Program-made: the position numbers and the translations under genes
Shown here: piece by piece, positions 749 through 14,207 of the stretch
Numbering within the stretch: position 1 is the first letter of the stretch
How the letters are laid out: every line of letters starts with the position of its first letter
The notes under the pieces: generated by a model
Told to the model about the DNA's origin: nothing
The model's database searches: none
The model's input: only the letters and a program-made list of their open reading frames with translations
Source of the DNA: a virus
Taxonomy: Duplodnaviria > Heunggongvirae > Uroviricota > Caudoviricetes
Virus record (IMG/VR): IMGVR_UViG_3300042869_000717
Location: 1-14,207 of that record
Strand: one strand, 5' to 3'
DNA: 14,207 nucleotides

Positions 749-753
749 AATCA

Positions 754-784
754 CAAAGATAATAATAAAGATTTACATAACAAA
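754..784 (-). promoter_or_regulatory. Bacteroidota sigma-A promoter for 482-748
   Basis: Minus strand TTTG (781-784), N19, TATCTTTG (754-761). Confidence 0.7.
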
Positions 785-2058: not shown

Positions 2059-2129
2059 ATGATTATTTAATTAACCACAAAGATAATGATTAATATTTGA
2101 TTTTACATATAATCAACTATATTTATAAT

Positions 2130-2449: not shown

Positions 2450-2455
2450 GTGGTA

Positions 2456-2487
2456 CAAAGATACAACATTATAATAACCCCGCCAAA
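2456..2487 (-). promoter_or_regulatory. Bacteroidota sigma-A promoter
   Basis: Minus strand TTTG (2484-2487), N20, TATCTTTG (2456-2463). Confidence 0.7.
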
Positions 2488-2543
2488 CGGAATATTAAAA
2501 ATATTCTCTGACGTATTTAACATAAGATTATATATTTATTATC

Positions 2544-2996: not shown

Positions 2997-3002
2997 CATA
3001 TA

Positions 3003-3049
3003 ACCCTCACATCACCATAACATACTGTTATGAATGGTGGGGGTTTTTT
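3003..3049 (+). terminator. Putative intrinsic terminator
   Basis: CATAACA-tac-TGTTATG inner stem with outer CACC/GGTG-type pairing, then GGGGGTTTTTT, right after the 2996 stop. Confidence 0.55.
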
Positions 3050-3089
3050 ATTAACAAGGAGGGGAGGTGTCATGTTAATAACTTATGGG

Positions 3090-3425
3090 TGGGGTCCATA
3101 CTCCCGCGTGGGGCGGGGTACACCCCCCCCCCCCCCTCCCTGCGGTATCCCCCCTTACTATACTGTCAAAACGTCATATAGGGGGGATAATCCCCTAAAT
3201 CAAATAAAATAATTTTTGGGGAAAAATTTACCCCTCCGGTTAGATGGTCGGGGGAATAAATCCCCCACCCTTTAATGGGGGAATAACTCTGTCCGGAAAT
3301 TAGAACTTATCTTAACCCTACCTAATGGGTGGGGTATTGACGGGGGAACACGTACTACACTATCGTTCCGTAAACACGACCCCTTCTTTTTTAAATGTCC
3401 CTTCAACGATAAAAAAAATTTTTGG
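3090..3425. other. G/C-homopolymer-rich non-coding segment with a C14 tract (3123-3136)
   Basis: GGGGCGGGGTACA-C14-TCCCTGCGGTATCCCCCC, further G/C runs to ~3345, then A8T6 near 3411-3424; function not established. Confidence 0.5.
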
Positions 3426-3429
3426 AAAA

Positions 3430-3461
3430 TTTGTGAGGAATTAGGAAATGTTATATCTTTG
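3430..3461 (+). promoter_or_regulatory. Bacteroidota sigma-A promoter for the nucleotidyltransferase
   Basis: TTTG (3430-3433), N20, TATCTTTG (3454-3461). Confidence 0.75.
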
Positions 3462-3475
3462 TAGAAAAATAACTT

Positions 3476-4096
3476 ATGGAGTATTGTGAATTACCGAAAG
3501 ATTCTTTATTAACTAAATTACCTAATTTCAATTTTATTAGGGATGATGAGAAAAAGGACAGGATGAATGTTGTAATTGCCGGTGGAGCCGTCCGGGATAG
3601 TTTATTTGGGGATGAGTATAGTGATATAGACATCTTTGGATTAACTAAAGAGGATTTGGATTTATTTGTTAAGTTGAATCTATCTAAGGGTAATGGTTAT
3701 AAATTGGTTTATTTCAATGAGAACTTGAGGACTTATAGAAAGGGTAAGATTAAGGTTCAGATTATATATAGGGAATATGATAAATTAACGGATATTATTG
3801 ATTCATTTGATTTTACGGTATGTCAGTTTATGTTTGATGGGGAGAAGGTTATATGTAACCCCTCCGGTTTATTGGATGTTTACCATAAGAGGATTATTAT
3901 AAATCATCTTGAACCATTATTTGTCTTTGATTCTTTGAGAAGAGTTCAGAAATATATACAGAAAGGATATACCATCTGTAATGGTGGGATAAAGGACATA
4001 TTGGATAAGTGTCGGGAATTGACTCAGGAACAATATGATGAGAATGTGGAATTCTATCCTAACACTAATGAATATCGAATAATTCGATTTGATTAA
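3476..4096 (+). CDS. Nucleotidyltransferase, PolyA-polymerase/CCA-adding enzyme head-domain-like (206 aa)
   Basis: Signature IAGGAVRD...SDIDIF (GG..RD plus DxD) and downstream SFDFTVCQF motif; no HD or anticodon-binding tail. Confidence 0.8.
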   Translation: MEYCELPKDSLLTKLPNFNFIRDDEKKDRMNVVIAGGAVRDSLFGDEYSDIDIFGLTKEDLDLFVKLNLSKGNGYKLVYFNENLRTYRKGKIKVQIIYREYDKLTDIIDSFDFTVCQFMFDGEKVICNPSGLLDVYHKRIIINHLEPLFVFDSLRRVQKYIQKGYTICNGGIKDILDKCRELTQEQYDENVEFYPNTNEYRIIRFD

Positions 4097-4172
4097 TATT
4101 ATAATGGGCGGGGTTATTCATATACCTTCCAGTCCGGACTCACTTCGTTCGATGGAATCCCAGCCCTTTTTT
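4086..4172 (+). repeat. Dispersed repeat copy A (core 4129-4172, extended homology to copy B)
   Basis: GATTTGATTAATATT...TATACCTTCCAGTCCGGACTCACTTCGTTCGATGGAATCCCAGCCCTTTTTT. Confidence 0.9.
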
Positions 4173-4193
4173 GATAGTCAAGTATTTATCAAT

Positions 4194-4466
4194 ATGAGAT
4201 ATGTTATAAGTGAAAGTAGATTAGAAAGAATGTTTAATAATTATATGGACTCCCAATATGATTTAACATATGATAGTTCACCTCGGGAGTTTGTGGATAA
4301 GAACGGGGATATATTTGGGTTTATGATATTATATTATCAATTTGACTATGTTGATTATTCAACGGAGTATACTTTGAATCAAATGTTTGGGGAACTTACT
4401 GATGAATTATTACTTTCTTATTTAAGGGAGAAATTTCCTGATATAAGAATTGACGGAATAGAATAA
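4194..4466 (+). CDS. Hypothetical phage protein (90 aa), MRYVISESRL family
   Basis: Internal ATG of ORF 4089-4466 with TATTTAT-N4-ATG context; the upstream in-frame part is the repeat element. Confidence 0.8.
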   Translation: MRYVISESRLERMFNNYMDSQYDLTYDSSPREFVDKNGDIFGFMILYYQFDYVDYSTEYTLNQMFGELTDELLLSYLREKFPDIRIDGIE

Positions 4467-4469
4467 GAC

Positions 4470-4494
4470 CCCCACCCTTAAGGTGGGGTTTTTT
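4470..4494 (+). terminator. Intrinsic terminator between convergent genes
   Basis: CCCCACC-cttaa-GGTGGGG followed by TTTTTT. Confidence 0.8.
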
Positions 4495-4789
4495 GTTTTC
4501 TTCTTTTTAATCTATAACCCACTTTCCTATCATATATGTTCCCAATATCATCATAGAATAATGGTTTAACATAATCAAAAAAATTGTCGATACCATAATA
4601 ATCAATTTCGTCGTATAGTTGATGAAGAACCTCATCAATAAAATCCTCTCTATTGTATTCATCAACATCATAATACTTAATAACTTTTGGTATTGTTGAT
4701 TTTATTAAATCAAATCTTCGTAATAAATCTATTGGAGGTTTATTTGATAGTAATTTTTTATATTGAATCTCTGTTAATATTATTTCCAT
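4478..4789 (-). CDS. Hypothetical phage protein (103 aa), MEIILTE family
   Basis: ORF track; TATTTAT-N4-ATG on the minus strand. Confidence 0.8.
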   Translation of the reverse strand: MEIILTEIQYKKLLSNKPPIDLLRRFDLIKSTIPKVIKYYDVDEYNREDFIDEVLHQLYDEIDYYGIDNFFDYVKPLFYDDIGNIYDRKVGYRLKRRKQKTPP

Positions 4790-4837
4790 ATTAATAAATA
4801 CCCTAATTGTTGAGTATTTATAATAAATAAATTTAAT

Positions 4838-4960
4838 ATGGGGAATATTGTTAGACTTACTGAAGGTGATTTGATTAATATTTTAATTGGAGGGGATATT
4901 CGTATACCTTCCAGTCCGGACTCACTTCGTTCGATGGAATCCCATCCCCTTTTTTTTTAG
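4838..4960 (+). pseudogene. Gene fragment (MGNIVRLTEGDLINIL...) running into dispersed repeat copy B
   Basis: Starts with a VRLTExDL-type N-terminus typical of small phage proteins; after ~15 codons the frame enters the repeat and stops at 4958-4960 (40 aa). Confidence 0.4.
4868..4958 (+). repeat. Dispersed repeat copy B (core 4911-4958)
   Basis: GATTTGATTAATATT...TATACCTTCCAGTCCGGACTCACTTCGTTCGATGGAATCCCATCCCC-T9. Confidence 0.9.
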
Positions 4961-4963
4961 AAT

Positions 4964-5446
4964 CTAATTAGGTGATTTAAGACCTATGATGTTTTGATAT
5001 TTTGGGAATAAGGTATCGTATTGGATTAGTATCTCATTAAGATTCTTGATATTCATAAATTCATTTTTTCCCGGGAGTTTTAGGTTGGACTCTATTGTAA
5101 AGATTGAACATACTGATTTAAGTTGTTTTTCGAAATCCACCGCTCCTTTTGCTTGTAATGTGTTTCCTCTTAGAACTTCGATTATTTCTATCTTATGGTG
5201 GTCGGTCCATCTTTTTTCTGAGAATCTTCCGGTTACTGAGTTTTTGGTATAACCAATTTTAATCATGTCTATACCATCCACTTTCATATGAACAACATAT
5301 ACGATGTGTTTCCCGAAACAAGTGTCAATTCTATTATAAAGGTAATCCGTGATTTTTGGATATTCGGTTATAAGGTTAGTGATAGTTTTAATTTTATCAT
5401 CTATCCCCTCCGTTTTCGAGTTCTCGTATTGTTCATATAAATTCAT
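4964..5446 (-). CDS. GIY-YIG superfamily / T5orf172-like protein (160 aa)
   Basis: VYVV...MIKIGYTKNSVTGRF pattern, later FEKQLK and GKNEF motifs, resembling T5orf172/MUG113-type domains. Confidence 0.6.
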   Translation of the reverse strand: MNLYEQYENSKTEGIDDKIKTITNLITEYPKITDYLYNRIDTCFGKHIVYVVHMKVDGIDMIKIGYTKNSVTGRFSEKRWTDHHKIEIIEVLRGNTLQAKGAVDFEKQLKSVCSIFTIESNLKLPGKNEFMNIKNLNEILIQYDTLFPKYQNIIGLKSPN

Positions 5447-5494
5447 GGGTTAAATATATGGAATAATTTTGGGATTAACAAATTATGGTCTCTC

Positions 5495-5540
5495 CCAGTT
5501 CGGACTCACTTCGTTCGATGGAATCCCAACCCTTTTTTTT
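5495..5540 (+). repeat. Dispersed repeat copy C
   Basis: CCAGTTCGGACTCACTTCGTTCGATGGAATCCCAACCC-T8. Confidence 0.9.
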
Positions 5541-5548
5541 ATTATATA

Positions 5549-5580
5549 TTTGGTGGAATAAAAAATTTATTATATCTTTG
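5549..5580 (+). promoter_or_regulatory. Bacteroidota sigma-A promoter
   Basis: TTTG (5549-5552), N20, TATCTTTG (5573-5580). Confidence 0.75.
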
Positions 5581-5598
5581 CTTTCTAAATAAAAAATT

Positions 5599-6015
5599 AT
5601 GGAAAAAGAATTTATACCTTACGAACAAGCATTAGCTTTAAAAGAATTAGGATTTGATGAACCTTGTTTAGGATATTATGTAGGTAAAGATAGAGAGGTT
5701 TATATATCAAATGAAACTATATCTGCTCCTTTTCAATTTAGATTAGAATCTAAAACAACATTTGTAGCACCACTTTACCAACAAGCATTTAGATGGTTTA
5801 GAGAGAAGTATAATTTAGATAGTTGGATTACTAAAGAAAACAAATATCAACAACCTTATTGTTGGTATATCCAAGATAATATCACTGAATATAATAGTGA
5901 TTTTAGAATAGGCGGATTAATATGGGATACTTTTTTTCAAACTTACGAAGAAGCAGAACTTGAATGTTTGGTCAAGTTGATAGAAATTGTTAAGAAGCAA
6001 AACTTAAAAAATTAA
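5599..6015 (+). CDS. Hypothetical phage protein (138 aa), 'EFIPYEQALALKELGFDEPC' family
   Basis: ORF track; promoter upstream; APLYQQAFRWFREKY and TYEEAELECL..LIEIVK motifs that I recognise from Bacteroidota phage hypotheticals. Confidence 0.85.
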   Translation: MEKEFIPYEQALALKELGFDEPCLGYYVGKDREVYISNETISAPFQFRLESKTTFVAPLYQQAFRWFREKYNLDSWITKENKYQQPYCWYIQDNITEYNSDFRIGGLIWDTFFQTYEEAELECLVKLIEIVKKQNLKN

Positions 6016-6022
6016 TAGAAAT

Positions 6023-6118
6023 ATGCAAAAAATAAAAGATTATTGGGGGTTAGTAATTTCATTATTACTCTTATCATTACCATTGTTAGCTTTATTATGT
6101 AATGTCTTAGAAAATTAA
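6023..6118 (+). CDS. Putative small hydrophobic peptide (31 aa)
   Basis: MQKIKDYWGLVISLLLLSLPLLALLCNVLEN; fills the gap between two genes; one predicted TM helix. Confidence 0.35.
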   Translation: MQKIKDYWGLVISLLLLSLPLLALLCNVLEN

Positions 6119-6133
6119 TAGAAATAGTAAAAA

Positions 6134-6457
6134 ATGATGTGGAACTCCAAACCAAAAACAACTGAACCCTTATCTCGAATTGATATATTGAACGAGTATA
6201 AGAAAAACCGAAATCAATATTATTATGAACTAATTAAATCCATTATGGACGGTGCCATTAGTCAATGTACTGATGTTGTTCTATTGGAACCAATCAAAAA
6301 TCATTACCCACATTACTCATACAATGATGTGGTGATTTATTATGATGATAATATCCATAAAATGTTATTGGATGATGACATTGCTTCGTATGCGGATTCA
6401 AGTAATAACATTGTGATAACAATAGACCCTCAAAGGGTTTCACTATTCAAAAAATAA
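6134..6457 (+). CDS. Hypothetical protein (107 aa)
   Basis: ORF track; operon-like spacing. Confidence 0.75.
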   Translation: MMWNSKPKTTEPLSRIDILNEYKKNRNQYYYELIKSIMDGAISQCTDVVLLEPIKNHYPHYSYNDVVIYYDDNIHKMLLDDDIASYADSSNNIVITIDPQRVSLFKK

Positions 6458-6462
6458 GTAAG

Positions 6463-6651
6463 GTGAAAAAGAAAATGACCATTACGGGAATCTTTAATGA
6501 TTTCTTCACAAATTACGAAGATAAGGTGAGCAGTGCTTCATTTGAGATTGATGATGAATTGGATTGTACTTGTTATAAAGAGAGTGGAAGATGTTTGGTT
6601 CATTTTCCACCTGAAGGTTATGTGATGTCCGATATTAATGAAACAACATAA
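6463..6651 (+). CDS. Hypothetical protein (62 aa from GTG; alternative ATG at 6475)
   Basis: ORF track; TAATG stop/start overlap with the next gene. Confidence 0.65.
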   Translation: MKKKMTITGIFNDFFTNYEDKVSSASFEIDDELDCTCYKESGRCLVHFPPEGYVMSDINETT

Positions 6652-6929
6652 TGGAAAAATTGGTTCATGAATATCTTAATTCTATTGTTGGTGATAACCC
6701 CACCTTATCGGTATCGAAAGAGAGTAACCATTTTGAGAGGGCGTTTAAGATGTTTAGTTATTATTATATTGTGAATGGAGTTAAGGTTGGTTCGAGACCA
6801 CATAGTGTTAGTAAAATATCTATGAAGTCTGAGTTATACAATAGTATAAGAAAACTATTTGGATTAAATCATGTGGATACTTCACAATATTTTAATAATT
6901 GGTTAAATAATATCCCTGCTGATGAGTAA
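6651..6929 (+). CDS. Hypothetical phage protein (92 aa), related to the small 'LFGL...W' family
   Basis: ORF track; translationally coupled; C-terminal ELYNSIRKLFGL...FNNWL resembles 12990-13301 and 11207-11497. Confidence 0.8.
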   Translation: MEKLVHEYLNSIVGDNPTLSVSKESNHFERAFKMFSYYYIVNGVKVGSRPHSVSKISMKSELYNSIRKLFGLNHVDTSQYFNNWLNNIPADE

Positions 6930-6943
6930 TTCGTATAGTGCTC

Positions 6944-6990
6944 TTCGTCCGGTTTCTCACTTCGTTCGAGGGAATCCCATTCCTTTTTTT
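6944..6990 (+). repeat. Dispersed repeat copy D
   Basis: TTCGTCCGGTTTCTCACTTCGTTCGAGGGAATCCCATTCC-T7. Confidence 0.85.
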
Positions 6991-6999
6991 CATTATATA

Positions 7000-7031
7000 T
7001 TTGGTGATTTGAATTCTTTGTTTTATATTTG
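7000..7031 (+). promoter_or_regulatory. Bacteroidota sigma-A promoter for the TnpB-like gene
   Basis: TTTG (7000-7003), N20, TATATTTG (7024-7031); flanks share ATTATATATTTGGTG and TTTGCTTTCTAAATAAA with the promoter at 5541-5598. Confidence 0.75.
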
Positions 7032-7050
7032 CTTTCTAAATAAATTATAT

Positions 7051-8253
7051 ATGAATCATTTTTTGGTTGAAAGAAAAAAGGGTCCATCTTATGTTGGAGT
7101 ATCAGTTGAGTATAGGATATACCCGGATGATAAACAAAAGAGATGGTTATTTGATATTGGTAATAAATTAAGAGGGGGATATAATCTTTTGGTTAGTGAA
7201 TTTATTGATGGGAAAGATTTTAAGGACTTTCCTGCTCCGAACTTAAAGAGTAAATCTCTTTTCTCTAATTATCTTTCAACGATTAATTGGTTTGATAATG
7301 TTCCATCAATATTTAGGGAATATGTTTCTGAATCTTTGGTCACATCAATTAAAAATTTCAGAAAAAAACCAAAATCAAGAAAACCTTCGTATAAGAAAAA
7401 AACGAATATATTGAAATTAACGACTAATTCAAATAGTATTAGTCGTGGAAGTTTAAGTTTGGATTGGGATAATAATGAAATTAGGTTTGCTCCTACTTTA
7501 CTTAAAAAAGTTGGGATAAATCCAATTATAAAATGTAAGTTTCATAAACAATTCAAAGGGTCTACACCAAAGTTAATGTCAATCCATAGGAAGTCTGATG
7601 GTAATTGGTATTTATCTTTAACATTGGATTTAAAGGATACTGAAATTGTTAAGATTAATAGTTCGGGTAAATCATTGGGAATTGATGTAGGTATTAAAGA
7701 TATGGCAATTACATCCGAAGGACTTAAATATCAGGTACCAATTGAGAGGATTAAAAAATTGGAAGATAAGATTTCAATTATTCAAAAGAGTATATCTCGT
7801 AAGAACAGATTAAACAAGGGTAAACCTAAATCCAAAAATTATTGGAGAGTAATTGAGAAGAAGGGTAGATTACAGAATGAATTAAATAATATTAGAAAAG
7901 AATATCACAGATATGTTGTTGGTGTTTTAACTAAAGGTAAGTTTTCTAAAATACAAGTTGAGGATATTCGTTTGTCATTTATGTTACAGAATAAACATAT
8001 GGCTAAATCCACTGCAAGAATCGGGATTCGTTCATTTGTCGATTATTTGGGAAGTGTTTGTAATTCAAAAGGAATTGAATTTAATAGGATTGACCCCCGT
8101 AATACAAGTAAGACTTGTTCTAACTGTGGGGATATAAATACTGAGTTAAAGTTATCCCAAAGGGAATGGACCTGTAAGTCTTGTGAGGAACACCACGATA
8201 GAGATATAAACGCAGCAAAAAATATCAGAGAAAGTTTGTTAGTTAGAGAATAA
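7051..8253 (+). CDS. tnpB: CRISPR-adjacent TnpB/Cas12f-like RNA-guided endonuclease (400 aa)
   Basis: N-terminal YRIYPDDKQK (IS605 OrfB-type), RuvC-I LGIDVG (D212), RuvC-II IQVEDI (E304), Zn finger C356/C359/C375/C378 (TSKTCSNCG...WTCKSC), RuvC-III HDRDINAAKNI (D385). Start set at ATG 7051 because the ORF-track extension 6922-7050 covers a repeat and the promoter. Confidence 0.93.
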   Translation: MNHFLVERKKGPSYVGVSVEYRIYPDDKQKRWLFDIGNKLRGGYNLLVSEFIDGKDFKDFPAPNLKSKSLFSNYLSTINWFDNVPSIFREYVSESLVTSIKNFRKKPKSRKPSYKKKTNILKLTTNSNSISRGSLSLDWDNNEIRFAPTLLKKVGINPIIKCKFHKQFKGSTPKLMSIHRKSDGNWYLSLTLDLKDTEIVKINSSGKSLGIDVGIKDMAITSEGLKYQVPIERIKKLEDKISIIQKSISRKNRLNKGKPKSKNYWRVIEKKGRLQNELNNIRKEYHRYVVGVLTKGKFSKIQVEDIRLSFMLQNKHMAKSTARIGIRSFVDYLGSVCNSKGIEFNRIDPRNTSKTCSNCGDINTELKLSQREWTCKSCEEHHDRDINAAKNIRESLLVRE

Positions 8254-8266
8254 TTACTTATCTTTG
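8235..8266 (+). promoter_or_regulatory. Bacteroidota sigma-A promoter driving the ncRNA/CRISPR transcript
   Basis: TTTG (8235-8238, in the last tnpB codons), N20, TATCTTTG (8259-8266); no ORF downstream. Confidence 0.75.
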
Positions 8267-8272
8267 TATCAT

Positions 8273-8469
8273 AATAAAAAAGTTCTTAAACATATTGGTA
8301 ACTCGCGTGTGTGTAACACGTTAAAAGGTTAAAACACTGTATGCAGATATAACCCGGGTAAAAGAACACGGTCAACGTGTGATTGCCGGAACGGTTAGGC
8401 GGCTAGGGGTCTCAAAACCTCATTATCCGAGAACGGATAGACTATCACAATTTCATTTGAAAAGCCATT
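8273..8469 (+). ncRNA. Candidate omegaRNA/tracrRNA-like scaffold
   Basis: Promoter upstream; hairpins CGTGT/ACACG (8306-8320), ACACG/CGTGT (8366-8380), GGGGT/ACCTC (8406-8421), TATCCG-agaa-CGGATA (8424-8439); anti-repeat GACTATC-acaa-TTTCA (8440-8455) complementary to the repeat segment TGAAAG(A/G)TAGTC. Confidence 0.6.
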
Positions 8470-8751
8470 ATTGGGATGTGTCTCGATTTTAAAGGTAGTC
8501 ACAACGAGGACACCGATATAAACCTCGTTAATAGGGTTGGGAATCATCACAATTTGAAAGGTAGTTACAACATAAAATCCCCAATTGAATAACATTTTGA
8601 GTTGGGAATCATCACAATTTGAAAGGTAGTCGCAACCGCTGTAAGTTAGCCTCAACGAAATTCAAAGTTGGGAATCATCACAATTTGAAAGATAGTCACA
8701 ACATAACATTTTAACTCTAACAGGGGAGCAAGTTGGGAATCATTACAATTT
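8470..8751 (+). CRISPR. CRISPR array: 5 repeats (36 nt; first diverged, last truncated), 4 spacers
   Basis: Repeats 8470-8505 (diverged 5' half), 8536-8571, 8601-8636, 8667-8702, 8732-8751 (partial); consensus GTTGGGAATCATCACAATTTGAAAGGTAGTCACAAC; spacers 30, 29, 30, 29 nt (8506-8535, 8572-8600, 8637-8666, 8703-8731). Confidence 0.95.
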
Positions 8752-8791
8752 AAACACAAAAAAAAAATGTTACCAATATGTTTTTAAACAT

Positions 8792-8824
8792 ACCCCATTT
8801 CTTTAATTAGATTTGGGGTTTTTT
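8792..8824 (+). terminator. Putative terminator of the array transcript
   Basis: ACCCCA...TGGGGT imperfect stem followed by a T-run. Confidence 0.45.
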
Positions 8825-8879
8825 ATTTGACATAACCATAAATTAGAATTATACTTTTATTCCATAAGGTATATTCATT

Positions 8880-9287
8880 ATGGTAAAAACAAAAACAATT
8901 TCATTTCTAAAATACAATAAGTTCGAGTTCGGGGAACAGGTCGTTAGTCAATTCGTGGTCTTTGAGTGTAAGTGGTTATTCTCCATCATCTTTTTTTATT
9001 TTCATAAATCTCTTGGTAGTCAGGACCGGTTTCATACCCACGCTTTTAATGCGTGGTCTGTGAAACTGTTTGGTGAGTATGATGAACAAATCTTGGATGA
9101 TGAGGTTAGTGGAGAATATCGTATTGTTCGTAGGGAGAAAGTCTTGGTTTATTTTCCCCGGGATTCATATCACCGGATTTCTAATAGTAACGGATGTATG
9201 ACCGTATTGTTTTCCGGTCCATGGAATAAAACTTGGAAGGAATATATTGATGGGGAGGTGGTTCATTATGGGTGGGGGCGGGAGTAG
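8880..9287 (+). CDS. Cupin-fold (RmlC-like) protein (135 aa)
   Basis: RFHTHAF...GEYDE first motif and YHRI...MTVLFSGPW second motif, matching the HxH..E..H cupin metal-binding pattern. Confidence 0.65.
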   Translation: MVKTKTISFLKYNKFEFGEQVVSQFVVFECKWLFSIIFFYFHKSLGSQDRFHTHAFNAWSVKLFGEYDEQILDDEVSGEYRIVRREKVLVYFPRDSYHRISNSNGCMTVLFSGPWNKTWKEYIDGEVVHYGWGRE

Positions 9288-9288
9288 T

Positions 9289-9357
9289 CTCACTTCGTCC
9301 GGTCACTCACTTCGTCCGGTCACTCACTTCGTTCGATGGAATCCCAACCCTTTTTTT
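9289..9357 (+). repeat. Dispersed repeat copy E, with a 17-bp internal tandem duplication
   Basis: (CTCACTTCGTCCGGTCA)x2 + CTCACTTCGTTCGATGGAATCCCAACCC-T7, starting 1 nt after the 9287 stop. Confidence 0.9.
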
Positions 9358-9386
9358 GGTTATGTGGAATCTTTGTTATATCTTTG
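9355..9386 (+). promoter_or_regulatory. Bacteroidota sigma-A promoter
   Basis: TTTG (9355-9358), N20, TATCTTTG (9379-9386). Confidence 0.75.
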
Positions 9387-9400
9387 TAAAAAAGTAGTAT

Positions 9401-9778
9401 ATGAAAAATGAAGATACTTTATTTCCATCCCCGAACGATAAGAAAATTGAAGTCCCCGATACATTAAAGGTTGTCATACTGAAGATGTGCCCCGAGATTA
9501 TTGATGTTGTTTCCACAGGATATAGGGAACAAATTATATATGACCCAATAAACTTCTCCCCGATATATAAATATTTGGTTGGAGTTGACATCCATTTTGA
9601 TAACCACAATGGAATGAAGAAAAGTAAACATGAATATAGTACGGAGATTAATGATTATTTTAAAATGACTTACGGTAGTGAGATGGGATTTGTATCATTC
9701 CATGTTCAGTCATTTATATTCCCCCCTGAAAAAAACAATAAGGATAAATTCTTTGAACTGTTTGAAAAAGTTAATTAA
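9401..9778 (+). CDS. Hypothetical protein (125 aa)
   Basis: ORF track; promoter upstream. Confidence 0.8.
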   Translation: MKNEDTLFPSPNDKKIEVPDTLKVVILKMCPEIIDVVSTGYREQIIYDPINFSPIYKYLVGVDIHFDNHNGMKKSKHEYSTEINDYFKMTYGSEMGFVSFHVQSFIFPPEKNNKDKFFELFEKVN

Positions 9779-9905
9779 TAAAGTTCTAAATAATTCCATT
9801 GAGGGATTTGTGTGCTATGAATACAAAGAATCTTATTGGATTATTAATCCTATCACAAATCAGTGGGTTTTTTATTGCTCATACTTTTTTGGAAATATAA
9901 AATAA
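9762..9905 (+). pseudogene. Truncated paralog of the N-terminal domain of 10213-11166 (47 aa from TTG)
   Basis: KKLINKVLNNSIEGFVCYEYKESYWIINPITNQWVF aligns by eye with GKIINTLINSSVQGVDTYNHNGSTWLIFTESKQWVI; then ends abruptly. Confidence 0.45.
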
Positions 9906-9919
9906 TATTCGTATCTTTG
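9888..9919 (+). promoter_or_regulatory. Bacteroidota sigma-A promoter
   Basis: TTTG (9888-9891), N20, TATCTTTG (9912-9919). Confidence 0.75.
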
Positions 9920-9938
9920 TCAAATAAAAAAGAAACAA

Positions 9939-10220
9939 ATGGATGGATTAACAATTGGTGTAACGTGGAGACGTGAAAACGATAGAAACTACTTTGACAT
10001 TGGATTCCCAAAAGACCAAGAGGCATTATCTGTTAAGGAATCAACAATGATGTTGGCTGCGGGTATGTCTTTATTAATGAAGGCTGGACATAAAAACGGA
10101 GATTTTAAAGATTACGAGATGATGGAACATGTAATTAATTATTTGAAAAGTGAGTTTGTATCCACAGAATCTTTTGAAGATGCTGAGATTCAACCAAATA
10201 TATTTAAAAATAATGTCTAA
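9939..10220 (+). CDS. Hypothetical protein (93 aa)
   Basis: ORF track; promoter upstream. Confidence 0.8.
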   Translation: MDGLTIGVTWRRENDRNYFDIGFPKDQEALSVKESTMMLAAGMSLLMKAGHKNGDFKDYEMMEHVINYLKSEFVSTESFEDAEIQPNIFKNNV

Positions 10221-11166
10221 TAAAAAGATTATGGGAAAAATAATAAACACCTTAATTAATTCTTCTGTCCAAGGTGTTGACACATATAATCATAATGGTT
10301 CCACTTGGTTAATCTTTACGGAGTCCAAACAATGGGTGATAGAATTAACTGAAAGTAAAACCCTGTGGTATAATTTTAATTTCTTTAAAAATCTTTTTGG
10401 GTATGCCTCATTGGAGGTTGTTCAAAACCAACACCTCATCACAAAATGGGTAGAAGATAATGTAATGAATGGTTCTAAGAATACCGCGTCACCATCTCAA
10501 ACACCATCATATAATCTGATGGAGGTTTTTGAGAATGGGATTAAAGAAACTTGTTGGAACCCGGAAGATAATACAAGTTGGGTTGAAAATGTTATTAAAG
10601 GCGGAGTAAAAGAAACCTGTTTGGAAATGAACATTACTGAAGGTGAGGTTGATGACATCATACAAGATGGTGTGAAGAAAACTAAAGGGGTGAAACTAAC
10701 CAACAAATCATTACAAATGGATGGTTCTTGTGTTATTGAAATTGTCATACAAGATGGAGTGAAAATGACTTCAAAATTAGAATCTCGTGAATATACCGGA
10801 GACATTGATGATGCACTTGAAAATGGTGTTAAAAGTTCTAACCCACGACAATATGTGGGAGAAGACATAATTGATAAGGTGATTGACAAGGGTGTTAATG
10901 AAACTTACTATGATGTATATCAACACAAAGGAAGAATTGATGGTGTGATTAAAAATGGAGTTAAAAAAACAAAAAAATTGAATGAGGTCGTTGTTGATTG
11001 GATTGGTGATATAATTGAGAATGGTGTAAAAGAAATAAAACCATTACCAGACCAAAGTGGAGAACTAATAGGTTATGGTAATTATTATCACGGTAAAGAA
11101 GATAGAACAAAAGCTTTTATAGATTATCTTGAGGAAACACTTGAGAAGGGTGTTAAAATTAATTAG
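10213..11166 (+). CDS. Repeat-containing protein (~317 aa; 9 copies of [IV]xx[VI][IL]xxGVKxT); alternative start 10231
   Basis: ORF 10150-11166 trimmed to the ATG overlapping the upstream gene end; repeats visible in the translation. Confidence 0.8.
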   Translation: MSNKKIMGKIINTLINSSVQGVDTYNHNGSTWLIFTESKQWVIELTESKTLWYNFNFFKNLFGYASLEVVQNQHLITKWVEDNVMNGSKNTASPSQTPSYNLMEVFENGIKETCWNPEDNTSWVENVIKGGVKETCLEMNITEGEVDDIIQDGVKKTKGVKLTNKSLQMDGSCVIEIVIQDGVKMTSKLESREYTGDIDDALENGVKSSNPRQYVGEDIIDKVIDKGVNETYYDVYQHKGRIDGVIKNGVKKTKKLNEVVVDWIGDIIENGVKEIKPLPDQSGELIGYGNYYHGKEDRTKAFIDYLEETLEKGVKIN

Positions 11167-11206
11167 ACCTACCTAAGGAAACTCCGATTCATGAATATTT
11201 ATTGGA

Positions 11207-11497
11207 ATGAAGATAATAATAACAGAAACCCAACAAGAAAGATTATTTAAGATAATTTCAAATCTCTTGGATGACAAATACAGTATTGAATATACCAATG
11301 ATAATCATTGGGTCTGGTATGATGGATATGCCGCAAGAATGAGATTAATTCCTAATGGTGAACTACGAGTTAGTTCAATAATGATAGATTATCTTGTTTC
11401 ACTATTTGGTTTAAATGAAGAAACATTAAAAGACTTTATAAAATATTACATGTCAATACACGATAAAGAATTTAATAGACTATTCATTATTGGTTAA
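11207..11497 (+). CDS. Hypothetical phage protein (96 aa), MKIIITE family
   Basis: ORF track; TATTTAT-N4-ATG. Confidence 0.85.
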   Translation: MKIIITETQQERLFKIISNLLDDKYSIEYTNDNHWVWYDGYAARMRLIPNGELRVSSIMIDYLVSLFGLNEETLKDFIKYYMSIHDKEFNRLFIIG

Positions 11498-11513
11498 ATA
11501 AAAAAAAAATATT

Positions 11514-11699
11514 ATGGAATATAAAATTAATAAAGAAGAAAAAACTATTACAATTTTTGATAGTGCGGGTAAAGTTGATGAGATTAAATCAATAATGTCA
11601 TTATTCCCCGATTACACTTTAAAAACTGGAACCCCAAAACAGGAATGTGTATGTGACCCCGATAAAGGTGGTGATGGTGTGTGTAAATGTGAAAAATAA
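11514..11699 (+). CDS. Small protein (61 aa) with C-terminal CxC...CxC motif
   Basis: ORF track; ECVCDPDKGGDGVCKCEK. Confidence 0.7.
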   Translation: MEYKINKEEKTITIFDSAGKVDEIKSIMSLFPDYTLKTGTPKQECVCDPDKGGDGVCKCEK

Positions 11700-11715
11700 A
11701 AAGAAATTAAAATAA

Positions 11716-11997
11716 ATGATGACAAGAAAATTAAGCAAACACATCGAAGATGAGCTCTTCGATAAAGAAAAAAGGGATATACCAACTGTGTTTCCTGAAC
11801 AAAGAGTAAAATTACAAGAAAATGTTGAACCTAAACCGGTTAAAAAGAAAAAACCTTACTATCGAAAGAAATATAATAAACCAAAAACTATTGAGATTAT
11901 ACCGGAACCGACTAAAAATTATGGTTTTTTTGTTGGGGTATTAGTTGGATTTCTTTCGGGTTTATTGGTTTCTTTAATTTTTACTATATTAACTTAA
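11716..11997 (+). CDS. Basic protein with C-terminal transmembrane helix (93 aa)
   Basis: ORF track; KKKKPYYRKKYNKPK basic patch and GFFVGVLVGFLSGLLVSLIFTIL hydrophobic tail. Confidence 0.8.
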   Translation: MMTRKLSKHIEDELFDKEKRDIPTVFPEQRVKLQENVEPKPVKKKKPYYRKKYNKPKTIEIIPEPTKNYGFFVGVLVGFLSGLLVSLIFTILT

Positions 11998-12006
11998 TAA
12001 AATAAC

Positions 12007-12035
12007 AACCCTACTCTAATCGGTAGGGTTTTTTT
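12007..12035 (+). terminator. Intrinsic terminator
   Basis: AACCCTAC-tctaatcg-GTAGGGTT plus T-run. Confidence 0.8.
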
Positions 12036-12049
12036 ATTATCTTTGTTGG

Positions 12050-12310
12050 ATGAAAAATTTGGTATTTAAATATTTTGATACTTTTTGTTACGGGGAACTG
12101 TGTGAGGATGTAGAACACAAAAATTGGCTTAAACCCGATAACCTTTCGGACGCTTTCGGGTATTCAACAGAGTGTAATCAGATTTTTTATAACGAATTAC
12201 TACAACATAACATCTATTCGATGTTTAGTGTTGGTAGAACTGAATTTAGAGAACTTTTGGGTGAGTGGTTTGAACACCGGTATCAATTACCGGTTTCGAT
12301 GGTTTTATAA
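12050..12310 (+). CDS. Hypothetical phage protein (86 aa), 'LVFKYFD' paralog
   Basis: ORF track; TATCTTTG box at 12038-12045; N-terminus shared with 12344-12664. Confidence 0.8.
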   Translation: MKNLVFKYFDTFCYGELCEDVEHKNWLKPDNLSDAFGYSTECNQIFYNELLQHNIYSMFSVGRTEFRELLGEWFEHRYQLPVSMVL

Positions 12311-12343
12311 TTACTCTTTTTAACCTTTTAAGTATTTATCATT

Positions 12344-12664
12344 ATGAATAAAAAGAAACGATTGGTATTTAAATATTTTGATATGATATATTCCGATTAT
12401 AAAAAACACATGCGTAGACCGGTAACCATGGAGTCACCAAATGTTTTATTTGAATATAAAAATGAGGATGGTAATGTCGCATTTAAATTCGATACTTCTA
12501 CTCAAATATTAAATTTTAATAATAAGGATTTTTATACTGCATTGAATATGTTAGGATTCACTACTTCAGAGTTTGCAAACATATGTAAAGAATATGCCGC
12601 GGATAAATTTGATTCAACAGTCATATTGAGGTCACCAATTTATAATTCATTAAAAAATAAATAA
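12344..12664 (+). CDS. Hypothetical phage protein (106 aa), 'LVFKYFD' paralog
   Basis: ORF track; TATTTAT-N4-ATG. Confidence 0.85.
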   Translation: MNKKKRLVFKYFDMIYSDYKKHMRRPVTMESPNVLFEYKNEDGNVAFKFDTSTQILNFNNKDFYTALNMLGFTTSEFANICKEYAADKFDSTVILRSPIYNSLKNK

Positions 12665-12666
12665 TT

Positions 12667-12993
12667 ATGGAATATATTATAACAGAGTCTCAATTCTCCA
12701 CAATTCAGACAAATAACCCCGGTTCCATTATCAGAATGGTGCGAAAATTCTATAATTCCATGGATATGGAAGGTATTTGTGAGTTAGATGTTGGATATGA
12801 CGAGGAAGATAACAATTTTCATTGTTATTTAATTATCGATAAGGATTGGTATACTAAAAACCCTATTGAAAAAGATTTAAAAAACGCTAAAATTCGTAAA
12901 TATGCAAAGGAACTTAAAGAAAAAATAAACAATTATTTGGGAATTTATATGTTTGTTGGACATTATGTAAGTCCATTACCTTGTGAATCATGA
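12667..12993 (+). CDS. Hypothetical phage protein (108 aa), MEYIITESQ family
   Basis: ORF track; ATGA overlap with the next gene. Confidence 0.85.
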   Translation: MEYIITESQFSTIQTNNPGSIIRMVRKFYNSMDMEGICELDVGYDEEDNNFHCYLIIDKDWYTKNPIEKDLKNAKIRKYAKELKEKINNYLGIYMFVGHYVSPLPCES

Positions 12994-13301
12994 GATACAT
13001 TATAACTGAAAGTAGATTAACCTCAATAATTGAAAATTGGTTGAGTGATAATTACGGTAATTTGGTAAGTGCGGTTATGGGTGGATATAGATTATATGTC
13101 CCATCTGAAGACGACATAACCGTTATTTTTTCTGTCAGCCCAAATTCGGAGAATCTAATTATGACTGAGAAACTTTTTAATTCTATGATAGATTTATTTG
13201 GAATAGAAAAAGAAGGAATAATTAGTGGTCTTGTGATGAAATGGTTTAATGAAAAATATAATCAAAAAGTTATTCGATTTAGAATTGAGCGTTTCTCATA
13301 A
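12990..13301 (+). CDS. Hypothetical phage protein (103 aa), MRYIITESR family
   Basis: ORF track; translational coupling. Confidence 0.8.
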   Translation: MRYIITESRLTSIIENWLSDNYGNLVSAVMGGYRLYVPSEDDITVIFSVSPNSENLIMTEKLFNSMIDLFGIEKEGIISGLVMKWFNEKYNQKVIRFRIERFS

Positions 13302-13418
13302 GTCTATATTTTCCACTAAAAAGAGAAAATTAAGTATAATTGTCCTTTATTTTCTATTATAACCAGACACTGAGCAAATATTTTCCATTATAACAAGATA
13401 CTTATAATAAAATAACAA

Positions 13419-13580
13419 ATGAAACACATATTAAATAATTTATCTGCTGAGGAGAAAAATAGTATCCTTGAACAACACACCGGAGGAATGAAAGTCATGA
13501 CCGAGAATTTCTCTAAATTGATTAATTCAAAACTTGGAGATTCAAAACCATTAGTGGAAGAAAAATCTAAGAAAAAATAA
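13419..13580 (+). CDS. Small phage protein (53 aa, MKHILNNLSAEEKNSILEQHTGGMKVMTENFSKLINSKLGDSKPLVEEKSKKK)
   Basis: Manual translation (below the track cutoff); A-rich start context; followed directly by a terminator. Confidence 0.75.
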   Translation: MKHILNNLSAEEKNSILEQHTGGMKVMTENFSKLINSKLGDSKPLVEEKSKKK

Positions 13581-13587
13581 TCTAAAT

Positions 13588-13613
13588 CCCACCCATTAAA
13601 GGTGGGTTTTTTT
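13588..13613 (+). terminator. Intrinsic terminator (same stem family as 4470-4494)
   Basis: CCCACC-cattaaa-GGTGGG followed by T7. Confidence 0.8.
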
Positions 13614-13730
13614 ATCCCCATCTCTCAATAGAATAGCAACTTCAATCATCTCTTGAACTCCACCATATCCACAGGAACAAGATGATAAACCCATATTACT
13701 TAAATAATATTTTGCTTCTTCTACTGTCAT
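13596..13730 (-). CDS. Small hypothetical protein (44 aa, MTVEEAKYYLSNMGLSSCSCGYGGVQEMIEVAILLRDGDKKTHL)
   Basis: Manual translation; TATTTAT-N4-ATG on the minus strand; converges on the terminator. Confidence 0.55.
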   Translation of the reverse strand: MTVEEAKYYLSNMGLSSCSCGYGGVQEMIEVAILLRDGDKKTHL

Positions 13731-13774
13731 ACTGATAAATATTGATTGAATTTTTTTATATAAAAACTTTTTCA

Positions 13775-13782
13775 TATATTTG
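13775..13782 (+). promoter_or_regulatory. -7 box of a sigma-A promoter
   Basis: TATATTTG; the -33 position reads TTTT (imperfect). Confidence 0.55.
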
Positions 13783-13796
13783 TCAAAAAATAATCT

Positions 13797-14150
13797 ATGG
13801 CGACTTATAAAAAAGGATGGACTCCTGAGGAAAAAAAAGTGATTGACACCAGTAAAAAAACTGTAAAAACCGTATTTGAATCGGTAACGTCCTCAATGTT
13901 CCCATTTGATAATATATCATTTGAAAATATAAAGGAAACTTTCATGTATCGATACATCCGTAATTTTATTGGAGGGTTCTTAATCATTGGGTTTCTATTA
14001 CTAATTCTTTATTTAGGCACTATTTTTGTGACTTGGAGTGTTCCTAAAGGAAATGATAGTCCAATAGATGGACCAACAAAAATGTTTTTTAGATTATTAT
14101 TTTTAGGATATCTATTTGTAATACTTTGCTTGACAATTGATGAAGATTAA
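13797..14150 (+). CDS. Membrane protein with two predicted TM helices (117 aa)
   Basis: ORF track; hydrophobic segments FIGGFLIIGFLLLILYLGTIFV and FFRLLFLGYLFVILCL. Confidence 0.8.
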   Translation: MATYKKGWTPEEKKVIDTSKKTVKTVFESVTSSMFPFDNISFENIKETFMYRYIRNFIGGFLIIGFLLLILYLGTIFVTWSVPKGNDSPIDGPTKMFFRLLFLGYLFVILCLTIDED

Positions 14151-14173
14151 TCCAATTAACGGTATTTATATAT

Positions 14174-14207
14174 ATGATTGAAACTTCGTTAAAAAAATTA
14201 TTACTTA
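14174..14207 (+). CDS. Partial CDS running off the window (MIETSLKKLLL...)
   Basis: TATTTAT-N4-ATG at 14163-14176; frame open to the window end. Confidence 0.5.
   Translation, partial: MIETSLKKLLL

Follow-up and report, generated by a model that had tools for sequence, protein, structure and literature searches.

A short CRISPR array in a phage record (IMG/VR record IMGVR_UViG_3300042869_000717, Caudoviricetes; the window analysed here is the 14,207-nt stretch at positions 1 to 14,207 of that record) raises the question of which effector reads it, as its repeat resembles those of type VI-B (Cas13b) arrays, yet the array lies beside the gene of a type V-like nuclease. The answer we favour, with a probability of about 0.72, is that the adjacent 400-aa phage TnpB-type nuclease, rather than Cas13b, takes its guides from this array. 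A large Bacteroidota phage would then carry a tiny DNA-cutting CRISPR system, whose repeat is most likely read in the direction opposite to that used by Cas13b. Encounters between TnpB elements and CRISPR arrays are regarded as the origin of new type V systems, and where the array came from can seldom be told. In this case it can: a deep phage TnpB-type lineage has Cas13b (VI-B) repeats, a probable opposite direction of reading and a co-evolving anti-repeat. The locus offers a testable case of array capture across CRISPR types, of a phage system probably dependent on host adaptation enzymes, and of possible cross-talk between a phage DNA-targeting and a host RNA-targeting effector. A 400-aa nuclease whose guide RNA can be read from its locus may also be of interest for compact genome editors.

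The array holds four spacers, with 36-nt repeats starting at 8470, 8536, 8601 and 8667 and a stub at 8732; re-reading it gave the same repeat consensus and 29-30-nt spacers as the original prediction had reported. Its parts are:

8470 to 8505, plus strand: repeat 1, with a degenerate 5' half and a conserved, intact 3' half (TTTTAAAGGTAGTCACAAC)
8506 to 8535, 8572 to 8600, 8637 to 8666 and 8703 to 8731 (within 8506 to 8731), plus strand: spacers 1-4, 29-30 nt
8536 to 8571, 8601 to 8636 and 8667 to 8702, plus strand: repeats 2-4, full length, one substitution apiece
8732 to 8767, plus strand: terminal repeat stub, only the 5' 20-24 nt of the repeat (8732 to 8751/55), then an A-run

An intact repeat 3' half precedes every spacer, and the last repeat is represented by its 5' stub only. 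Closure of the array by a stub and an A-run recurs in most homologous loci examined (clearly in L004, L170, L176 and L305, less clearly in L168). This anatomy fits the repeat-then-spacer polarity of type V systems. A 60% repeat-like match inside the nuclease gene (7510-7552) was taken as chance.

The family membership of the repeat was assessed by scanning a genome collection with the signature GTTG-N13-TTTGRARKGTA-N3-ACAAC, which matched at least 120 stretches. Almost all of them are in Bacteroidota, and Bergeyella zoohelcum ATCC 43767, Segatella buccae ATCC 33574 and Flavobacterium columnare are among the carriers. Among the 120 signature loci listed, each fetched to at most 8 kb, 58 contain a Cas13b homologue and none contains the TnpB family of the window. 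Seven ORFs tested from signature loci match NCBIfam NF038190 (Cas13b) with E values of 1e-139 to 1e-272, and all three loci recovered from 401 Bacteroidota genomes by an unbiased search for Cas13b carry the signature. Five large ORFs beside signature arrays had no NCBIfam match, and that of L215 had no PDB sequence match either. The window repeat falls within the spread of the 105 bacterial repeats with the VI-B signature among the matches listed (bacterial VI-B repeats agree with one another at a mean of 27.4/36 positions); the closest of the matches listed, from Chryseobacterium sp. IT-36CA2, is identical at 32/36 and adjoins a genuine cas13b (NF038190, E about 1e-256). The best identity to bacterial VI-B repeats is 30-32/36 in six of the eight phage lineages, 27 in L004 and 24 in L168. 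Closely related phages vary in the 5' half of the repeat, the variants matching different VI-B repeats of bacteria, and the window and L004 repeats are identical at only 23/36. On this evidence the window repeat genuinely belongs to the VI-B (Cas13b) repeats of Bacteroidota, as had been proposed from its appearance, and its best matches are VI-B repeats rather than those of II-C or Cas12L/Cas12f. The 29/36 identity given at that time to a 'Riemerella' repeat was reproduced for the window consensus, and this 'Riemerella' repeat is 35/36 identical to that of Bergeyella sp. RCAD1439.

The gene beside the array encodes the following protein:

7051 to 8253, plus strand: 400-aa TnpB-type RuvC nuclease, with its true start at M44 of the longer ORF 6922-8253

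Close homologues are all about 400 aa and align from the start at 7051. The protein matches Pfam Cas12f1-like_TNB (2.5e-20) and, weakly, OrfB_IS605, and D212/E304/D385 and the four zinc-finger cysteines (CxxC..CxxC) are invariant in 18 homologues; the type V-like nuclease of the original prediction is here recognizable as a TnpB-type RuvC protein with intact catalytic residues. Its nearest solved structures are TnpBs (8IAZ, 4e-29; ISDra2 TnpB, 1e-20), with LaTranC at 3e-19 and Cas12f structures at 3e-8 or weaker. The locus departs from an IS200/IS605 TnpB transposon in its single nuclease copy in 96.7 kb of phage record, its own guide-RNA promoter and its multi-spacer array with turnover, and the nine neighbouring ORFs scanned gave no Pfam match to transposase families.

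The end of the gene and the sequence around the array contain the elements of a putative guide-RNA unit:

8235 to 8266, plus strand: Bacteroidota-type promoter of the guide-RNA unit, -33 TTTG at 8235-8238 and -7 TAtcTTTG at 8259-8266, read from sequence
8270 to 8439, plus strand: structured scaffold RNA of the omegaRNA/tracrRNA kind, from conservation and consensus fold
8288 to 8302, plus strand: 5' arm of a long-range inverted repeat (AAACATATTGGTAAC), complementary to 8769-8783
8440 to 8453, plus strand: anti-repeat GACTATCACAATTT at the scaffold 3' end, pairing with repeat positions ~16-31 (AATTTG..GGTAGTC)
8769 to 8783, plus strand: 3' arm of the long-range inverted repeat (GTTACCAATATGTTT), bracketing scaffold and array together with the 5' arm
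8793 to 8826, plus strand: probable intrinsic terminator, an interrupted hairpin then a T-run, read from sequence

The promoter overlaps the end of the nuclease gene, and both of its motifs are present at equal spacing in all homologous loci; a sigma-70 scan is ill-suited to a promoter of this type. The scaffold matched no Rfam family, and compensatory changes are seen at 19 of the 30 pairs in its consensus fold over 10 loci. Between the window and L004, whose nucleases are 83% identical, the scaffold is ~95% identical though the repeats differ; the anti-repeat is the sole scaffold segment that changes, and its changes are compensatory (GACTATC/GGTAGTC in the window, GGTTATC/GTAACC in L004 and L168). 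Anti-repeat/repeat duplexes are predicted in all eight lineages, with a mean of -13.95 kcal/mol for cognate against -9.9 kcal/mol for non-cognate combinations (permutation p=0.0006, for lineages that are related and not fully independent). Repeat 1 could pair with the anti-repeat in cis, and within the window array the substitutions C31>T and G26>A keep the pairing. In L004, L168 and L170 the scaffold continues without a gap into the last 14 nt of a repeat and then into a segment as long as a guide, which would make it a naturally occurring single-guide RNA. When more distant TnpB-linked arrays were screened crudely for an anti-repeat, L343/L351 alone gave a clear result, and L327/L332 gave a suggestive one. 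The long-range inverted repeat has 12-17 bp of complementarity in each of seven lineages, with compensatory changes. A consensus scan did not call the terminator at 8793 to 8826; its hairpin and T-run are clearer at the equivalent place in L004, L176, L305 and L309.

The arrangement of nuclease, promoter, ~200-nt scaffold, array and terminator is found in every homologue examined, from 98% down to 41% identity, and signature arrays recur in IMG/VR beside diverse OrfB_IS605 proteins of 320-533 aa. One branch, with support 89/92, splits 22 array-bearing nucleases from 40 array-less phage TnpBs, the array-less set being distant TnpBs from metagenome and alignment-seeded viral scans with generic TnpB peptide patterns; an array of any kind occurs at only 4 of 162 generic TnpB loci. 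The use of a VI-B-type array is a property of the whole deep phage nuclease lineage, beyond this locus. The original prediction had suggested that the TnpB captured a VI-B-type array and reads it with the opposite polarity. The pairing and covariation of the anti-repeat, the anatomy of spacers and repeats and the conserved module all favour that proposal, and the homologous nucleases use repeats related to that of the window; what did not hold is capture as a one-off event.

A mechanism can be proposed in which one transcription unit, with a Bacteroidota promoter of its own in the last stretch of the nuclease gene, yields the scaffold RNA and then the array. The terminal anti-repeat of the scaffold would pair with the 3' half of the repeat (~16-31), in cis with repeat 1 or in trans with later repeats, and the spacer 3' of the paired repeat would become the guide, in the repeat-then-spacer order of TnpB omegaRNA and Cas12 crRNA. 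The layout, the repeat/anti-repeat pairing and its covariation come from sequence analysis, and RNA processing, nuclease loading and DNA cleavage would be the steps that complete the pathway. In the likeliest history, a VI-B-type leader-plus-array module joined a TnpB scaffold early in the phage lineage, and the module may afterwards have been exchanged, or have tracked host repeat variants. Host Cas1-Cas2, which also serves VI-B arrays in trans, would probably insert new spacers beside the scaffold.

By its features, the locus classes with the V-U or TranC intermediates between TnpB and Cas12, an intact RuvC nuclease, a co-oriented conserved array and an anti-repeat scaffold RNA being its type V (V-U*/TranC-like) features. 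The TranC systems (transposon-CRISPR intermediates; Jin et al., Cell 2025, as described in PMC13565253 and PDB 9JFO/9JFQ) and the V-U* candidates (Altae-Tran et al. 2023, PMC10691335) likewise have a TnpB-sized 'typical TnpB' with DRDxN in RuvC-III, no adaptation genes, and an omegaRNA-like scaffold split into a tracr-like part and array-encoded guides. Unlike the systems so described, that of the window is phage-borne, has an apparent single scaffold-array transcript within a covarying long-range stem, and has a repeat belonging to an identifiable foreign family (VI-B). Sequence similarity between LaTranC and the window nuclease is confined to the C-terminal RuvC and zinc-finger region. The V-F Cas12f systems (Un1Cas12f1, AsCas12f and Alistipes Al3Cas12f) share a miniature RuvC effector, the usual lack of cas1/cas2, a tracrRNA between gene and array, and a short repeat:anti-repeat duplex beside the guide (PMC13186708), whereas the window protein is smaller and closer to bona fide TnpBs (4e-29 and 1e-20 against 3e-8 or weaker, a ranking by E-value and not by phylogeny). 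With VI-B arrays (Hoikkala et al. 2021, PMC8092290; PMC13187072) the window shares the 36-nt repeat with GTTG..TTTG.A.GGTA...ACAAC, ~30-nt spacers, the leader on the GTTG side, an anti-repeat directly upstream of the first repeat, and no adjacent cas1/cas2. It differs from them in that no cas13b was found in 96.7 kb, and in its anatomy, which fits repeat-then-spacer use, with a terminal 5' stub, and its weak repeat hairpin. Viral mini-arrays and RNA anti-CRISPRs (Racr; PMC11656645, PMC10651486) are also cases of phages carrying host-CRISPR-type repeats, but they rely on a host effector, whereas this phage brings its own nuclease and a matching, covarying scaffold. The Racr survey found viral repeat units of every type except VI (PMC11656645, PMC10651486), and in the published surveys examined VI is the sole repeat type absent from viruses and plasmids.

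The kinship with host repeats also invites the reading, which we judge unlikely, that host Cas13b binds and cuts the full repeats of the transcript, besides or instead of the phage nuclease. In that case either the phage would choose the spacers that Cas13b carries, with RNA targeting excluding rival phages, or Cas13b would be soaked up and host crRNAs diluted. The window repeat agrees at 30-32/36 with two repeat variants of a single Chryseobacterium VI-B locus that are themselves a similar distance (6/36) apart. Of the 17 positions in its 5' half, which the scaffold leaves unpaired, 13-14 still agree with host VI-B repeats. In several phage lineages, however, the 5' GTTG needed to close the Cas13b hairpin is gone (GGTG or GGTA instead). 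TnpB-linked repeats also fold more weakly than bacterial VI-B repeats (mean MFE -6.5 vs -9.0 kcal/mol, p=1.4e-4, in a comparison biased by the search pattern); the window repeat is at -2.2 kcal/mol, and the closest Chryseobacterium repeats are also weak, at -2.8 to -7.3. Transcription runs through the repeats in the Cas13b sense, the leader lies on the side where Cas13b arrays have it and a full repeat follows each of spacers 1-3, but spacer 4 is followed by the stub instead of a complete repeat and the 5' half of repeat 1 is degenerate. Over-expressed extraneous crRNA has been found experimentally to sequester Cas13b and weaken phage defence (PMC13187072), yet pairing with the scaffold anti-repeat should block Cas13b as the leader-repeat hairpin does (PMC13187072), and Cas13b activation leads to dormancy, which is harmful to the phage too. 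Hijacking or decoying of host Cas13b is unneeded to explain the array.

Because VI-B-type repeats flank each internal spacer on both sides, the array could be read both ways, and it is conceivable, if quite improbable, that the TnpB-type nuclease reads it repeat-then-spacer for DNA while host Cas13b reads it spacer-then-repeat, for RNA targeting or sequestration. If so, it would be the first natural array shared by two opposite-polarity effector types across the phage-host boundary.

Very little weight falls on the idea that serial duplication of the nuclease's omegaRNA 3' end gave rise to the array, which would then resemble host arrays by convergence or chance. GTTG...CAAC ends are common to many class 2 repeats, and in L004, L168 and L170 the end of the scaffold RNA beside the guide is identical to the 3' end of the repeat. 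Duplication of an omegaRNA segment is one published route to type V arrays (PMC10691335). Such an origin sits poorly with the 30-32/36 agreement in six of eight lineages, which is in register along the entire repeat, with matches at 11-13 of the 16 pattern-free positions against a mean of 8.2 for bacterial pairs, and with the finding that for each phage repeat some VI-B repeat of bacteria is closer than most of the other phage repeats are. Repeat length, spacer length and leader side are likewise common to both, and the half that the scaffold leaves unpaired is the part that matches particular host repeats. Least probable of all is a decaying relic, with a non-functional nuclease or array conserved by recent common descent: the end repeats are both imperfect, each full window repeat has one substitution and no spacer targets were found, but the module persists unbroken in relatives with as little as 41% protein identity, the catalytic residues are invariant, near-identical phages differ in their spacers, substitutions in the paired region preserve pairing, and scaffold and anti-repeat carry compensatory changes.

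The absence of protospacer matches counts against the reading we favour. The window array gave no convincing protospacer in the INPHARED phage collection. Neither the ~45 family spacers nor 98 others matched the phage record or the fetched loci, and exact 22-mers of window spacers 1 and 3 and of L176 and L305 spacers had none in IMG/VR. A match of L168 spacer 3 to L170/L004 (19/20) was rejected, since over their full length the sequences, which are AT-rich, align only with an indel and two mismatches. Bacterial CRISPR spacers from ~128 bacterial loci had no match to the phage record and therefore give no host link for the phage.

Spacers turn over at the scaffold-proximal end (L176 vs L183, L306 vs L307, window vs L167), and the window and L167 differ in all four spacers with nucleases 98% identical. 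In the window lineage, where repeat 1 is degenerate and repeats 2-4 are canonical, the array does not fit a simple leader-proximal duplication of repeat 1. Neither Cas1 nor Cas13b (NF038190) was found in 96.7 kb of the phage record, which is ~32% complete by CheckV estimate, so that cas1/cas2 or cas13b could lie in the missing part. Together, the scaffold-proximal turnover and the lack of cas1 in 96.7 kb make spacer supply by host Cas1-Cas2 plausible, if unproven, and the II-C enzymes acting in trans are plausible suppliers. In F. columnare, VI-B arrays gain spacers via II-C Cas1 in trans (PMC8092290). The II-C repeat of Chryseobacterium sp. IT-36CA2, a host-like genome, is 47 nt rather than 36 nt long, which counts against II-C supply, but the spacers of this II-C locus are 30 nt and its repeat shares 5' GTTG.GAAT and 3' TAGTCACAAC both with the VI-B repeat of the same genome and with the phage repeat.

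The source IMG/VR virus record is 96.7 kb long and ~32% complete (CheckV), and the window, its first 14.2 kb, carries five copies of a 36-nt unit between 8470 and 8755, with a period of 65–66 nt, next to a TnpB-type nuclease gene:

6922–8253 (+): long ORF of the TnpB-type gene, start Met at 7051 by homologue alignment, upstream of the array and co-oriented with it
Within 8470–8755: repeat copy 1, 5′ half degenerate, 3′ half intact
Within 8470–8755: repeat copies 2–4, full length, one substitution apiece
Within 8470–8755: repeat copy 5 (last), a 5′ stub of ~20 nt, then an A-tract
Within 8470–8755: four spacers of 29–30 nt

Because the close homologues are all 400 aa long and begin at the Met of 7051, the start is placed there and not at 6922, and the 43-codon upstream extension (6922–7050) is probably untranslated. 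In Pfam the nuclease matches Cas12f1-like_TNB and, weakly, OrfB_IS605; its RuvC residues (D212, E304 and D385) and four zinc-finger cysteines do not vary among 18 homologues, and the nearest solved structures are TnpBs (8IAZ, 4e-29; ISDra2 TnpB, 1e-20), then LaTranC, then Cas12f.

The original prediction that the repeat resembles those of type VI-B (Cas13b) was borne out. A signature built from features common to the window repeat and Cas13b repeats (GTTG-N13-TTTGRARKGTA-N3-ACAAC) was searched in one genome per prokaryote species and found in at least 120 stretches, almost all Bacteroidota arrays; carriers among the matches listed include Bergeyella zoohelcum ATCC 43767, Segatella buccae ATCC 33574 and Flavobacterium columnare, all classical Cas13b strains. 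Among the 120 stretches listed (fetched sequence ≤8 kb each), 58 hold a Cas13b homologue and none the phage nuclease family, and seven large ORFs adjoining signature arrays match NCBIfam NF038190 (Cas13b; E 1e-139 to 1e-272). A protein-first search found Cas13b in 3/401 Bacteroidota genomes, with the signature in the arrays of all three. The closest bacterial repeat among the matches listed, GTTGGGAAGTATCACAGTTTGAAGGGTAGTCACAAC of Chryseobacterium sp. IT-36CA2, agrees with the window repeat at 32/36 positions and those of other Chryseobacterium species at 29–31/36, while bacterial VI-B repeats agree with one another at a mean of 27.4/36; at the 16 pattern-free positions the window agrees at 13, bacterial pairs at a mean of 8.2. 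The reference repeat given with the original prediction is 35/36 identical to that of Bergeyella sp. RCAD1439, and its count of 29/36 against the window repeat is correct. In one Chryseobacterium VI-B locus (L245, 3334–3900), two sub-arrays stand in succession, with variants 6/36 apart and intermediate repeats between them.

Relatives of the nuclease were fetched at 98%, 80–86%, 46–53% and 41% identity, and all sufficiently long loci have the same order of nuclease, promoter, ~200 nt of conserved non-coding sequence (the scaffold), array and terminator. In each of these the promoter is of the Bacteroidota type (TTTG, ~20 nt, TAnnTTTG) and overlaps the nuclease stop codon; the arrays have 36-nt repeats and ~30-nt spacers, a terminal stub and A-run being usual but not universal. 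The scaffold fold is conserved, 19/30 pairs being kept via two-sided changes. Between the window and the phage locus L004, the nucleases are 83% and the scaffolds ~95% identical, the repeats merely 23/36, and the sole scaffold segment that differs is the 3′ end, GACTATCACAATTT in the window and GGTTATCTCAAAAT in L004. The former complements GGTAGTC...AATTTG of the window repeat and the latter GTAACC...TTTGAGAT of the L004 repeat, a sequence comparison that we regard as decisive for ownership of the array by the nuclease. Three further phage loci pair as follows:

L305: anti-repeat ACACCTTACAAAT, paired repeat segment ATTTGTAAGGT
L309: anti-repeat GACTACCTCAAATT, paired repeat segment AATTTGA..GGTGGTT
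L310: anti-repeat GGTTATCTTTTAAAT, paired repeat segment ATTTGAAAGGTAA

Across eight lineages, cognate duplexes average -13.95 kcal/mol and non-cognate ones -9.9 (permutation p=0.0006, which overstates independence, the lineages being related). Pairing also survives both substitutions within the paired region of the window array, C31>T and G26>A.

The anti-repeat partner spans repeat positions ~16–31, and ACAAC and then the spacer remain downstream, the same arrangement as in omegaRNA or Cas12f tracrRNA:crRNA. An intact repeat 3′ half directly precedes each spacer in all lineages examined, a degenerate 5′ half of repeat 1 is tolerated in the window-type and L004-type lineages, and the terminal stub lacks the 3′ half in most lineages. 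For a repeat-then-spacer effector all four window units would be complete; the intact 3′ halves before spacers and the 5′-only stub thus favour the earlier suggestion that the TnpB reads the array with a polarity opposite to that of VI-B. In three phage loci, the scaffold is followed by a short loop, a 14-nt copy of the repeat 3′ end and a guide-length segment ('spacer 0'), a fused unit that we interpret as a natural single guide:

L004, 4465–4508: scaffold-fused 'spacer 0' unit
L170, 3911–3954: scaffold-fused 'spacer 0' unit
L168, 3906–3949: scaffold-fused 'spacer 0' unit

'Spacer 0' is nearly alike in L004 and L170 (28/30), whose other spacers are unlike, and may be a fixed omegaRNA-like guide ahead of a variable array. 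A search for targets of the 'spacer 0' segments found none, nor was a protospacer found for any spacer in any collection searched; the functions of nuclease and array are putative.

The VI-B likeness is a trait of the whole nuclease lineage, beyond the window. Of the eight phage repeat types in the comparison, six agree with some bacterial VI-B repeat at 30–32/36, and phage repeats agree with one another mostly at 20–29/36. The values of 31 below are for single repeat variants; consensus repeats give 30–32.

L306 repeat: Dysgonomonas termitidis, 32/36
L176 repeat: Dysgonomonas MAG, 31/36
L305 and L309 repeats: Sphingobacterium hungaricum, 31/36
L310 repeat: Tenacibaculum agarivorans, 31/36

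For the L004 (27) and L168 (24) types the sample contained no close bacterial counterpart, the search pattern being blind to such repeats. An IMG/VR scan with two repeat 3′ cores at 66-nt spacing returned 35 stretches, about twenty of which adjoin a Cas13b homologue; most others lie directly 3′ of diverse OrfB_IS605 proteins (320–533 aa), and a few are uninformative (too short, or flanking ORF without Pfam match). Any array was present in only 4/162 generic TnpB loci, the signature in one of those. In a maximum-likelihood tree, one branch (support 89/92) parts the nucleases that have an array (22) from the phage TnpBs that have none (40); because the tree is unrooted and has some long branches, a single early array capture in the nuclease lineage stays compatible with it.

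The leader of VI-B loci is found on the GTTG side, and transcription proceeds from it into the repeats (PMC8092290); in the phage, this place is taken by the scaffold. VI-B leaders form anti-repeat hairpins with the first repeat, blocking Cas13b (PMC13187072). In the 60 nt preceding repeat 1, 38/74 bacterial VI-B leaders (from L184–L303) have an anti-repeat-like segment at about -40 to -6 (z below -2); in many it is an imperfect reverse complement of almost the whole repeat, consistent with the published leader-repeat hairpin. The phage anti-repeat lies 15–50 nt 5′ of repeat 1. This common leader position and leader anti-repeat point to capture of an entire VI-B leader-plus-array module. Sequence homology between the phage tracr-like anti-repeat and the VI-B leader anti-repeat was not demonstrated, and we hypothesize descent of the former from the VI-B leader element.

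Near-identical loci differ in their spacers: the window and L167 (nucleases 98% identical) have no spacer in common, L176 and L183 (same protein) differ in presence versus absence of the scaffold-proximal spacer, L306 and L307 (same protein) have unlike first spacers, and between L170 and L173 one internal unit is gone. The last spacers of several lineages begin with (C)ATAA, which fits an old leader-distal array end. No Cas1 was found in the 96.7 kb of the record (~32% complete). The proposed supply of spacers in trans by host II-C Cas1-Cas2 is plausible by analogy, since II-C Cas1 adds spacers in trans to VI-B arrays of F. columnare (PMC8092290), and it would also account for the tracking of host variants by the phage repeat in its unpaired 5′ half and its last bases. 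IT-36CA2 has a II-C locus (Cas9, Cas1, Cas2) with 30-nt spacers and a 47-nt repeat; GTTG.GAAT and TAGTCACAAC recur in this repeat, in the VI-B repeat of the same genome and in that of the phage. Reverse-complemented, the initial 20 nt of the phage repeat match the 47-nt repeat at 16/20 (read by eye), and D. termitidis has a weaker form of this likeness. Against the simplest form stand the repeat lengths (47 versus 36 nt) and the degenerate first repeat of the window lineage; repeats and spacers could alternatively derive from recombination with host arrays. II-C arrays are present in IT-36CA2 (L315, 5711–6917) and D. termitidis (L316, 7316–8289). When reverse-complemented, the VI-B repeat of either genome is similar to the initial ~20 nt of the II-C repeat from that genome (GTTGTGA....C.TTCAAA); these VI-B repeats have the appearance of II-C relatives that are shorter and inverted, which bears on trans servicing of VI-B arrays.

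Hijacking or decoying of host Cas13b by the phage array is not needed and is less likely, though possible. In its favour, a Chryseobacterium VI-B locus has two repeat variants to which the window repeat is as near as they are to each other, and surplus non-productive crRNA sequesters Cas13b experimentally (PMC13187072). Against it, Cas13b requires a complete repeat 3′ of the spacer, binding the whole-repeat hairpin and cleaving at its 3′ end (PMC13187072), and therefore the first window repeat would be useless to it and the last spacer dead. The 5′ GTTG is moreover lost in several lineages, and repeat hairpins are weaker in the TnpB-linked set (mean -6.5 versus -9.0 kcal/mol, p=1.4e-4), a comparison that the search pattern biases and in which the nearest Chryseobacterium repeats likewise have weak hairpins.

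CRISPR arrays linked to TnpB genes and devoid of adaptation genes are already well documented (V-U* candidates, ~50 independent events; PMC10691335, PMC12669027), and the name TranC has been given to TnpB-to-Cas12 intermediates with split guide RNA (PMC13565253). Viral repeat units and plasmid CRISPR systems have been surveyed, and all types but VI were found. In the accessible literature, no type V-like lineage was found to be described as using VI-B-family repeats. About twenty viral-classed IMG/VR contigs carry arrays with the repeat GTTGTATTAGCCTTTAGTTTGAAAGGTAGAAACAAC (among them L323, L324, L325, L328, L331, L337, L342, L346, L347, L349, L350 and L354); twelve have a Cas13b homologue (~21% identity over 700–775 aa) and two more a short match alone, and they are either prophage-adjacent host loci or mobile-element-borne Cas13b. 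Five large ORFs (1087–1237 aa) adjoining VI-B-signature arrays had no NCBIfam match, and the one tested (L215) no PDB sequence match; they may be Cas13b variants beyond reach of the current model:

L215, 2024–5455 (-)
L263, 1180–4524 (+)
L240, 565–4053 (+)
L197, 1344–4604 (-)
L198, 1324–5034 (-)

In the phage loci, an inverted repeat of 12–17 bp joins the scaffold 5′ extremity to sequence right after the array A-run, 456–753 nt apart:

Window, 8288–8302 and 8769–8783: long-range inverted repeat, also in L004, L168, L170, L176, L305 and L309

Compensatory changes preserve its pairing in 7 lineages (e.g. AAACATATTGGTAAC, TGACATAATTAATAAC, TTGACATAATCGATGAC), and the two arms apparently form a long-range RNA stem enclosing the entire scaffold-array transcript, possibly serving processing or stability or forming part of the scaffold fold.
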